From a virus (lineage: Duplodnaviria > Heunggongvirae > Uroviricota > Caudoviricetes), in the IMG/VR virus record IMGVR_UViG_3300002835_005179, positions 1-64,000 of that record: a stretch of DNA of 64,000 bases; one strand, written 5' to 3'. Positions 37,824-38,110 of this stretch are shown here, one piece after another. Every line of letters begins with the position of its first letter. Position 1 is the stretch's first letter. A model generated the notes under the pieces. It saw only the letters and a list, made by a program, of their open reading frames with translations, searched no databases and was not told where the DNA came from. The position numbers were made by a program, and so were the translations under genes.

Positions 37824-38110
37824 TGAAAATGCCGCCTTCTGTTTCCAGGTGGCGGCGAACCCAGTCTTATGCTGTTTAAGCAGCAGCAGACATTACTAAT
37901 ACGTTAGTATTTGCGTTTATAGTTTACGCTGTTATGGTAGTCGTCTACCAGAAATCTACTCTCATCTATTCCTGCCAATCGATACTGATTCAGGCCCACC
38001 AAAGTATACTCTTTGTCAATATCCCCGCAGATATCATACGTTTGGTGTAGGACTCAACTTCATAGGTCGAGCGAGTATACTTTGGTGGACCTGCTGGGTT
38101 CCGCCCCCAG
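37824..38110 (-). ncRNA. ssrA: Candidate two-piece (circularly permuted) tmRNA gene (ssrA-like)
   Basis: On the minus strand:
- T-arm-like hairpin at 38094-38110.
- Acceptor 3' strand CAGGTCC plus ACCA at 38083-38093.
- 16-bp intervening hairpin, 37996-38011 paired with 38073-38088.
- Acceptor 5' strand GGGCCTG at 37991-37997, giving a G3:U70 pair.
- Tag frame GCA..TAA at 37876-37914 (ANTNVLVMSAAA).
- Terminator hairpin at 37831-37856 followed by a T-run.

The 5' boundary is uncertain. Confidence 0.65.

Follow-up and report, generated by a model that had tools for sequence, protein, structure and literature searches.

The minus strand between positions 37825 and 38145 of IMG/VR virus record IMGVR_UViG_3300002835_005179 almost certainly encodes a circularly permuted (two-piece) transfer-messenger RNA (tmRNA), the product of an ssrA gene. 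The stretch analysed, here called the window, comprises the first 64,000 nucleotides (nt) of that record and is part of the genome of an uncultured T4-like myophage with 34% GC. In bacteria, tmRNAs rescue stalled ribosomes and tag unfinished proteins for destruction. An original prediction, made from the letters of the sequence, had placed a permuted tmRNA-like gene here, beside a phage Clp unfoldase, and had named ARAGORN, the Rfam covariance models and compensatory changes in related phages as ways of checking it. All of these support the gene, ARAGORN at a relaxed threshold, as do the Pfam, NCBIfam and Protein Data Bank (PDB) matches of the neighbouring protein, and the six minus-strand elements listed in that prediction are all found where it placed them.

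In an Rfam scan of the whole window, three matches exceeded the curated thresholds, and two of them fall on this locus: RF04321 (tmRNA_permuted), with 99.9 bits at 37876-38145 against a cut-off of 47, and RF01849 (alpha_tmRNA), with 92.9 bits at 37828-38207 against a cut-off of 50. Both models are matched over their full length, with E-values of 1e-18 to 1e-24. ARAGORN, run at an 80% score threshold (-ps80), called a tmRNAp* comprising the same gene with the tag ANTNVLVMSAAA*. As had been noted beforehand, the gap is GC-richer than its surroundings (0.42-0.43 versus 0.30-0.35 in the flanks) and holds no credible open reading frame (ORF), only short, TTG-started ones on the opposite strand. The precursor folds at -117.4 kcal/mol, compared with -80.5 kcal/mol for shuffled sequences (z = -7.6).

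The permuted order is confirmed by the layout of the locus (Table 1), in which the acceptor half lies upstream of the coding half with an 85-nt spacer between them. The strands GGGCCUG and CAGGUCC form an acceptor stem that is paired at 7/7 positions and includes a G3:U70 wobble, the alanine identity element. A perfect helix of 16 base pairs (bp) joins 38073-38088 to 37996-38011, and the ends of the spacer prolong the acceptor stem into one continuous 21-bp helix. Spacer length varies between 15 and 210 nt among the viral copies, and the spacer sequences bear no relation to one another. In two related contigs, designated L001 and L002, the mature pieces are identical and the spacers (31 and 99 nt) unrelated, which is what an excised, unconstrained intervening segment predicts.

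Three details of the structure were read differently in the original prediction. The T-loop GGCGGAA, called non-canonical there, is a normal alpha-type loop that lies one base from the Rfam consensus GGCGGUA/GGCAGUA, and most viral copies have GGCGGTA or GGCAGTA. What had been taken for a GC hairpin and T-run terminator (37823-37856) is actually stem 2 of a conserved 3' pseudoknot, and a scan for consensus terminators found none there. Stem 2 may still aid termination in the window phage; by eye, L001 and another relative, L003, have a separate hairpin and T-run just downstream of the tmRNA, and these have no counterpart in the window. Lastly, an alternative pairing between the T-arm and a pseudoknot strand does form part of the minimum-energy fold of the single sequence. 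The strand in question, CTGGGTTCGCCGCC, lies at about 37851-37864 rather than 37857-37870, however, and as the pairing is not evident by eye in L001 or L003, it was rejected as a real fold and is treated as incidental.

Evidence that the structure is maintained comes from related phages. An ATPase 72-74% identical to the one encoded next to the tmRNA occurs in six viral or metagenomic contigs, and 6/6 carry a permuted tmRNA upstream of it on the same strand. Uncultured T4-like phage contigs carry the tmRNA gene at the same place, and contigs assembled independently (ENA, NCBI, JGI and Logan) share the gene order and have the same or a slightly different tmRNA; further contigs were found by look-ups that started from the small ORF upstream of the tmRNA, and the available contigs reach 81.7 kb. 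Scanning viral contigs with a profile of the ATPase returned the same five loci, and a metagenome scan added one further clade member together with distant homologues that have no tmRNA nearby. No match was obtained when the locus and the surrounding 16 kb were compared by blastn and megablast with 50,697 deposited phage records, or when the exact T-arm/acceptor pattern was sought in viral contigs. The sole addition from the pattern TAACAGCRTAAACTATAA, L009, was discarded as a chance match in a repetitive coding region with no Rfam match.

For the analysis of covariation, 11 distinct phage copies were aligned with their spacers removed. Without recourse to Rfam, RNAalifold found the acceptor stem, the T-arm and P2a, and 13 of the 17 pairs in the tRNA domain are changed on both sides. 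Across the alignment 97.3% of cells are paired, compared with 72.3% in shuffles (0/500 reach the observed value) and 40-57% in slid registers, and the covariation score of 0.688 compares with 0.191 in shuffles and values not above 0.18 in slid registers. The pairs G1-C72, G2-C71 and G3:U70 are invariant in 11/11 copies, acceptor positions 4-7 covary, as do four of the five T-stem pairs, and all five pairs of P2a show double changes. The TCGA of the D-loop analogue is invariant across the aligned copies. Outside the tRNA domain, stem 2 of the pseudoknot is perfectly complementary, with a different sequence each time, in 9/9 copies; even the near-identical relative L095 has the compensatory pair GCCACC/GGTGGC in place of GCCGCC/GGCGGC. 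The distal part of P2, GAAAUC/GAUUUC, also has a different complementary sequence in each relative, as judged by eye rather than by formal count because the alignment register shifts there.

The tag frame is conserved as well. The tag of the window, ANTNVLVMSAAA, corresponds to ANTNVLAMSAAA in L095, ANTNVLAMAA followed by three stop codons in L097 and L098, VNTNVMAMSAAA in L003 and GNAKAMSMSA in L001, L002 and L005. Between the window and L003, eight codons differ, five of them synonymously (including TCT to AGT, serine) and three conservatively, and 9/12 residues are identical (10/13 with the stop), compared with scores of 2-4 in other frames. The other two frames of the region are not conserved and contain stops. 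The stop codon sits in the loop of a GCTG/CAGC hairpin, and this hairpin and the resume context UAUAAAC are conserved in the relatives. Such a pattern indicates that selection acts on the tmRNA both as a message and as a structure, and the coding-type constraint on the frame argues against a pure decoy or a pseudogene.

Several observations weigh against reading the locus as a working tmRNA gene. At default settings, ARAGORN does not call a tmRNA in the window; since the same gene and tag are returned at the 80% threshold, this miss is a threshold effect and not counter-evidence. Upstream of the tag, in the place of PK1, only the hairpin 37935-37950 is seen, and by eye it has a mismatch in some relatives. 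The C-termini of the clade's tags vary (AAA, MAA and MSA), unlike the canonical ...ALAA degron, so that targeting of the tag to a protease is uncertain; most other viral copies have tags that end ...YALAA, unlike those of the window clade. Scans for sigma-70-like promoters and consensus terminators found nothing convincing at the tmRNA gene. Finally, SmpB was not found among the 43 window ORFs scanned with Pfam or PHROGs, nor by tblastn of the window with E. coli SmpB as the query. The RNA must thus use host SmpB, the expected partner, unless the gene lies outside the 64-kb window.

Even with these points in the balance, the locus is most likely a functional, phage-encoded, circularly permuted ssrA gene, and the tmRNA probably works in trans-translation with host factors during infection. 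A single precursor would be transcribed from the minus strand, possibly from a T4-type late promoter, and its ...CAGGUCC-ACCA end would pair with GGGCCUG 85 nt downstream to form the 7-bp acceptor stem, extended by the spacer into a long helix. By analogy with Caulobacter, host tRNA-processing enzymes would remove the spacer, leaving an acceptor piece of ~63 nt and a coding piece of ~170 nt joined by the acceptor stem and helix P2. Host alanyl-tRNA synthetase (AlaRS) would charge the RNA via G3:U70, and host SmpB and EF-Tu would bring it to ribosomes that have stalled on mRNAs that are broken or lack a stop codon. Translation would then resume at GCA and append (A)ANTNVLVMSAAA, and the ribosome would be released at UAA. 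The likely benefit to the phage is that ribosomes would be kept free during the mRNA decay that accompanies infection, while incomplete proteins would be marked for Clp-type proteolysis.

The candidate promoter is a near match to the T4 late-promoter octamer. L001, L002 and L003 all have the exact octamer, TATAAATA, in the corresponding place, and the window has it 15-55 nt ahead of the tail-sheath ORF and other structural-region ORFs. By eye, AATAAATA also occurs before the start of the ATPase gene, at about 37808-37815. As such motifs are common, and hence of low specificity, in 34% GC DNA, late expression is a lead rather than an established finding.

Table 1. Features of the permuted tmRNA locus, its neighbours and the surrounding phage genome (window positions).
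Feature	Position	Strand	Basis or remark
Entire precursor gene of the permuted tmRNA (ssrA), with acceptor piece, intervening segment and coding piece	37825..38145	-	Rfam and ARAGORN; 5' and 3' ends predicted
Acceptor piece, ~63 nt	38083..38145	-	Rfam alignment; T-arm and P2a covary across 11 phage copies
P2 distal strand GAAATC	38140-38145	-	Acceptor piece
Local hairpin	38124-38139	-	Acceptor piece
P2a strand	38114-38120	-	Acceptor piece
T-arm CTGGG-GGCGGAA-CCCAG (5 bp, 7-nt loop), directly 5' of acceptor 3' strand	38094-38110	-	Sequence
Acceptor 3' strand CAGGTCC	38087-38093	-	Sequence
Encoded ACCA 3' end	38083-38086	-	Sequence
Intervening segment, 85 nt, presumed excised	37998..38082	-	ARAGORN; spacers of relatives
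Coding piece, ~170 nt	37825..37997	-	Rfam alignment; covariation
Acceptor 5' strand GGGCCTG	37991-37997	-	Pairs with CAGGTCC
D-loop analogue with invariant TCGA	37979-37990	-	Alignment of phage copies
P2a strand	37973-37978	-	Coding piece
P2 distal strand GATTTC	37951-37956	-	Coding piece
Hairpin	37935-37950	-	Coding piece, upstream of tag
Tag frame GCA...TAA, ANTNVLVMSAAA*	37876..37914	-	Resume codon predicted from alignment and ARAGORN
Stop-codon (P5) hairpin GCTG/CAGC	37871-37884	-	Coding piece
3' H-type pseudoknot	37831..37864	-	Fits 3' end of alpha_tmRNA consensus
Pseudoknot stem 1, CTGGGT with ACCTGG	37859-37864 with 37845-37850	-	Read by eye
Pseudoknot stem 2, GCCGCC with GGCGGC, then ATTTTC	37851-37856 with 37831-37836	-	Covaries
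U-tract	37825-37830	-	End of coding piece
AATAAATA, 7/8 match to T4 late-promoter octamer TATAAATA	38152..38159	-	Putative promoter, few bases before first acceptor-piece helix
TATAAATA before ORF starts	3496, 7653, 10807, 24513, 44085, 61949 and others		
D2-only Clp/Hsp100-type AAA+ ATPase, 340 amino acids (aa)	36771..37793	-	Pfam, PDB match; immediately downstream of tmRNA
Short ORF similar to release-factor domain 3 (95-aa P0001 call)	38200..38487	-	Pfam RF-1, prfB/prfA-region matches; directly upstream of tmRNA
ClpP-family serine peptidase	13324..13938	-	Pfam CLP_protease (PF00574); 24 kb from tmRNA
Tail sheath	3558-5498		
Tail tube	5561-6073		
Portal	6085-7695		
S77 prohead protease	8971-9612		
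SbcCD	33998-36774		
Family B DNA polymerase	48740-51253		

The protein encoded immediately downstream had been described as a ClpA/B-D2-type ATPase with an IGF ClpP-docking loop, a description that is borne out. It matches Pfam AAA_2 (127.6 bits) and ClpB_D2-small (62.9 bits), its best PDB match is the D2 of S. aureus ClpC (E = 1e-58), and its IGF aligns with the AGF of the ClpP-docking loop of that protein; T. thermophilus ClpB has no such tripeptide there. The alignment covers only ~450-790 of ClpA/ClpC/ClpB, and the protein has neither the N-domain nor the first AAA+ ring (D1). Judged by these matches, it is a D2-only ClpC/ClpA-like relative rather than an orthologue of ClpA or ClpC. Synteny between its gene and the tmRNA is kept in every close relative.

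A ClpP gene, placed at 13324-13914 by the original prediction, is real and extends to 13938. The product scores 110.9 bits against a Pfam cut-off of 20.2 and has an intact triad, its Ser (IASAG), His (SHQ) and Asp (HDVW) aligning with those of the solved ClpP 6x60; as its score falls below the NCBIfam equivalog cut-offs, it is a divergent member of the family. The PHROGs label of head-maturation protease was set aside, a T4-type S77 prohead protease being present elsewhere in the window. The gene adjoins one for an SPFH/Band-7 (stomatin-like) protein at 14077-14868 on the minus strand, an arrangement that recalls NfeD/stomatin-type protease pairs and not a Clp operon. This ClpP has homologues in 68 viral contigs, and 80-82% identical ones are found on the same contigs as the tmRNAs of L001 and L004, both of which are long enough to test. 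NUMOD3 motifs in two ORFs of the window (12247-13056, plus strand, and 43191-44063, minus strand) suggest homing-endonuclease-like genes, and one of these ORFs sits between the structural module and the ClpP gene.

It had further been proposed that the phage carries tagging RNA, unfoldase and peptidase together. The three genes do travel together in this clade, but the link is one of co-occurrence only. An extension of the explanation given above would make them a self-contained tag-and-destroy module, in which a phage degron (...MSAAA, ...MAA or ...MSA) is handed to the adjacent D2-only ATPase and, via its IGF loop, to the phage ClpP. This extension is unlikely. In every clade member the tmRNA and ATPase genes share a strand and are either adjacent or no more than 1.4 kb apart; in L003, however, a 370-aa ORF stands between them, no tmRNA lies within 3 kb of ATPase homologues that are 33-39% identical, and the window-type ATPase is in the flanks of none of ~30 other viral tmRNA loci. 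The docking-loop alignment, the intact triad of a ClpP distinct from the S77 head protease and the presence of ClpP on both relatives' contigs that could be tested all fit such a module, as does a distant ATPase homologue (L019) with a ClpP homologue 1.2 kb away. Against this stand the 24 kb that separate the window ClpP from the tmRNA and its place beside the SPFH gene. The departure of the clade's tags from the ...YALAA of most other viral copies would suit a private degron, but a tag ending in ...AA-COOH is equally readable by host ClpXP or ClpAP, and the ATPase lacks an N-domain or adaptor-binding region of the kind that would point to recognition of tags. Given this balance, it is doubtful that the phage uses its own Clp ATPase and ClpP to read the tag. 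Somewhat less probable again is the fuller proposal that the clade runs its own late tagging and disposal pathway, from a diverged phage tmRNA through a phage degron to the D2-only unfoldase and phage ClpP, with rescue demand possibly raised by read-through due to an amber-suppressor tRNA (described below).

Other explanations depart further from a tmRNA that works in trans-translation. The RNA might be a decoy or regulator that binds host SmpB, AlaRS or ribosomes and so blocks or senses host trans-translation without productive tagging. There is precedent in mycobacteriophage DS6A, whose tmRNA lacks a coding sequence (CDS-less) and inhibits host tmRNA (cited in PMC11915505), it has been suggested in the huge-phage literature that phages sense stalled ribosomes via tmRNA (PMC7162821), and the failure to find a phage SmpB in the ORF scans and by tblastn is in keeping with such a role. 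The tag frame is open in 5/5 variants under coding-type constraint, however, and this, the conserved stop-codon hairpin and the conserved resume context are features that a decoy would not need, which makes the proposal improbable. A functionless passenger, be it an ssrA gene recently taken from a host, a pseudogene or what is left of an attachment site, is more improbable still: tmRNA genes are common integration sites with fragments in prophages (PMC9004378) and the release-factor-like ORF next door looks decayed, but the gene is complete with both pieces and tag, the genome is lytic-type and T4-like, the gene persists in relatives with only 72-74% identity in the flanking proteins, every helix shows compensatory changes, and recent capture is disfavoured by a pseudoknot motif shared by 35 viral contigs that has no real tmRNA match in 185,579 species genomes (see below).

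The release-factor-like ORF scores 25.5 bits against a cut-off of 35 for Pfam RF-1 (PF00472). Its GGQ position reads TPDQ or TPRQ, the loop is three residues shorter, and the C-terminus differs among near-identical relatives (68, 95, 131 and 139 aa; P0001-P0005). L001 has a counterpart at 3181-3381; L002 and L003 lack the ORF. What remains here is probably a phage release-factor or ArfB-like gene in decay; a role as a second ribosome-rescue factor was rejected in view of the missing GGQ, the sub-threshold score and the unstable C-terminus.

The original prediction had also regarded a two-piece tmRNA as a clue to the host, and this clue proved weak. L001 and L002 have an identical mature RNA, yet Rfam assigns one to the beta type and the other to the alpha type, with the spacer alone deciding, and an OM43 phage carries an alpha-type tmRNA unlike that of its host (PMC9004378). 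The tmRNA subtype alone should thus not be used for host prediction. The portal protein was likewise dropped for this purpose, as it is at most 47% identical to cyanomyophage portals and thus too distant to name a host. Near the DNA polymerase region, the genome encodes a 1061-aa outer-membrane beta-barrel protein resembling TonB-dependent receptors (52608-55793, minus strand; OMP_b-brl_4, 432 bits; N-terminal CarboxypepD_reg).

With regard to the lineage of the RNA itself, 35 viral contigs (hit set L029-L060) contain the pseudoknot motif CTGGGTT-N(4-25)-CCTGGAAACAGAA, and in ~20 of these a permuted tmRNA was confirmed by ARAGORN and/or Rfam. A scan of 185,579 species-representative genomes for the A variant of the motif only, cellular alpha consensus having C at that position, gave 31 matches (L061-L091) in unrelated phyla, where ~24 were expected by chance, and none has a tRNA-like domain. 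Since the motif is found in many viral contigs and, as the A variant, has no real tmRNA match in the species genomes, it suggests a phage-borne tmRNA sub-lineage.

Some other genes of the window touch on translation and its quality control. A tRNA with anticodon CUA (24146-24220, plus strand; 'tRNA-Pyl' in ARAGORN; Rfam tRNA, 64 bits) has an acceptor stem of 7 bp and an encoded CCA, so that it resembles phage tRNAs of the amber-suppressor type. TAG still closes 12 of the 83 crude ORFs in the window. Speculatively, more tmRNA might be required if ribosomes read through amber codons to the 3' ends of mRNAs. An Hsp20/alpha-crystallin small heat-shock protein (56214-56642, minus strand), a T4 Rnl1-type RNA ligase (42111-43208, plus strand) and a metallophosphoesterase (39325-39870, minus strand) represent additional protein-quality-control and RNA-repair functions in the same genome.

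Two-piece tmRNAs have been described in phages before. A survey of 18,146 phage genomes found 53 unique two-piece structures, 50 of them from aquatic phages, and two-piece tmRNAs in 17 of 47 Melnitz-like contigs (PMC9004378), and the tmRNA database behind RF04321, of 97,179 sequences, includes 79 from phages (PMC11915505). Huge phages have been reported with tmRNA and SmpB (PMC7162821), and phage G with tmRNA plus ClpXP (PMC12484599). As phage two-piece tmRNAs are documented (PMC9004378; PMC11915505), the window locus is not a new kind but a well-supported further example.

Its closest counterparts are in aquatic T4-like phages, namely Methylophilales phage Melnitz, Pelagibacter phages HTVC008M and Mosig and pelagimyophage MAVGs (Buchholz et al., 2022, PMC9004378), which likewise have a permuted ssrA in an AT-rich T4-like myophage genome. 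These Melnitz-type phages share with the window an alpha-type tRNA-like domain, a complete tag frame, the lack of any reported phage SmpB and the 3' pseudoknot motif CUGGGUU...CCUGGAAACAGAA, which is common to many viral contigs. They differ from it in their neighbouring gene, a late-transcription coactivator rather than a Clp ATPase, in their proposed early promoter, where the window has a late-type motif, and in their tags, which end ...ALAA instead of ...MSAAA. The window also has no blastn similarity to any of the 50,697 deposited phage records, and the Rfam scan of the window contains no glnA-type match, that is, no glutamine riboswitch such as that of phage Melnitz.

The ssrA of Caulobacter crescentus (RF01849, since merged into RF04321) has the same order of acceptor piece, spacer and coding piece. 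With this alpha type the window gene shares the T-loop GGCGG(U/A)A, G3:U70, an encoded CCA, a P2 that joins the pieces, a tag that starts AN(D/T)N, a stop codon in a hairpin and a 3' pseudoknot of the form ...ACCUGG(C/A)AACAGAA. In contrast to alpha-type tmRNA, the window copy is virus-borne and reaches only 92.9 bits, its tag has neither the acidic/aromatic middle nor the ALAA end, the stretch from the tag to the last pseudoknot is much reduced (~37 consensus positions of the alpha_tmRNA model deleted), and its close relatives score better with the beta model. Bacillus megaterium phage G (PMC12484599) also combines a tmRNA, a Clp unfoldase and ClpP in one phage genome; its tmRNA, however, is of the standard one-piece form and does not adjoin the unfoldase, which belongs to a ClpX-ClpP gene pair, whereas the window has a D2-only ClpC/ClpA-like module beside a permuted tmRNA and a distant ClpP.

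What is distinctive at the window locus is thus the minimal Clp unfoldase next door, the non-canonical tag ends, a possible late promoter and invisibility to ARAGORN at its default settings. This last point extends to the sub-clade: among the loci examined (the window, L001, L002, L005 and L092-L098), default ARAGORN misses the tmRNAs and recovers only the L003 type, whereas Rfam finds all. Default ARAGORN, the tool of the Melnitz survey (PMC9004378), misses the window gene, and published phage-tmRNA surveys that used it probably undercount two-piece tmRNAs. Annotations should accordingly show an ssrA gene at 37825-38145 instead of an empty gap. The locus adds a distinct gene neighbourhood to the known phage tmRNAs, with a minimal Clp unfoldase adjacent, ClpP and an amber-suppressor-type tRNA elsewhere in the genome, and unusual tag endings. 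Ultimately, a defined tag, an ATPase and a peptidase in one phage make the question of what tmRNAs do for phages a testable one.

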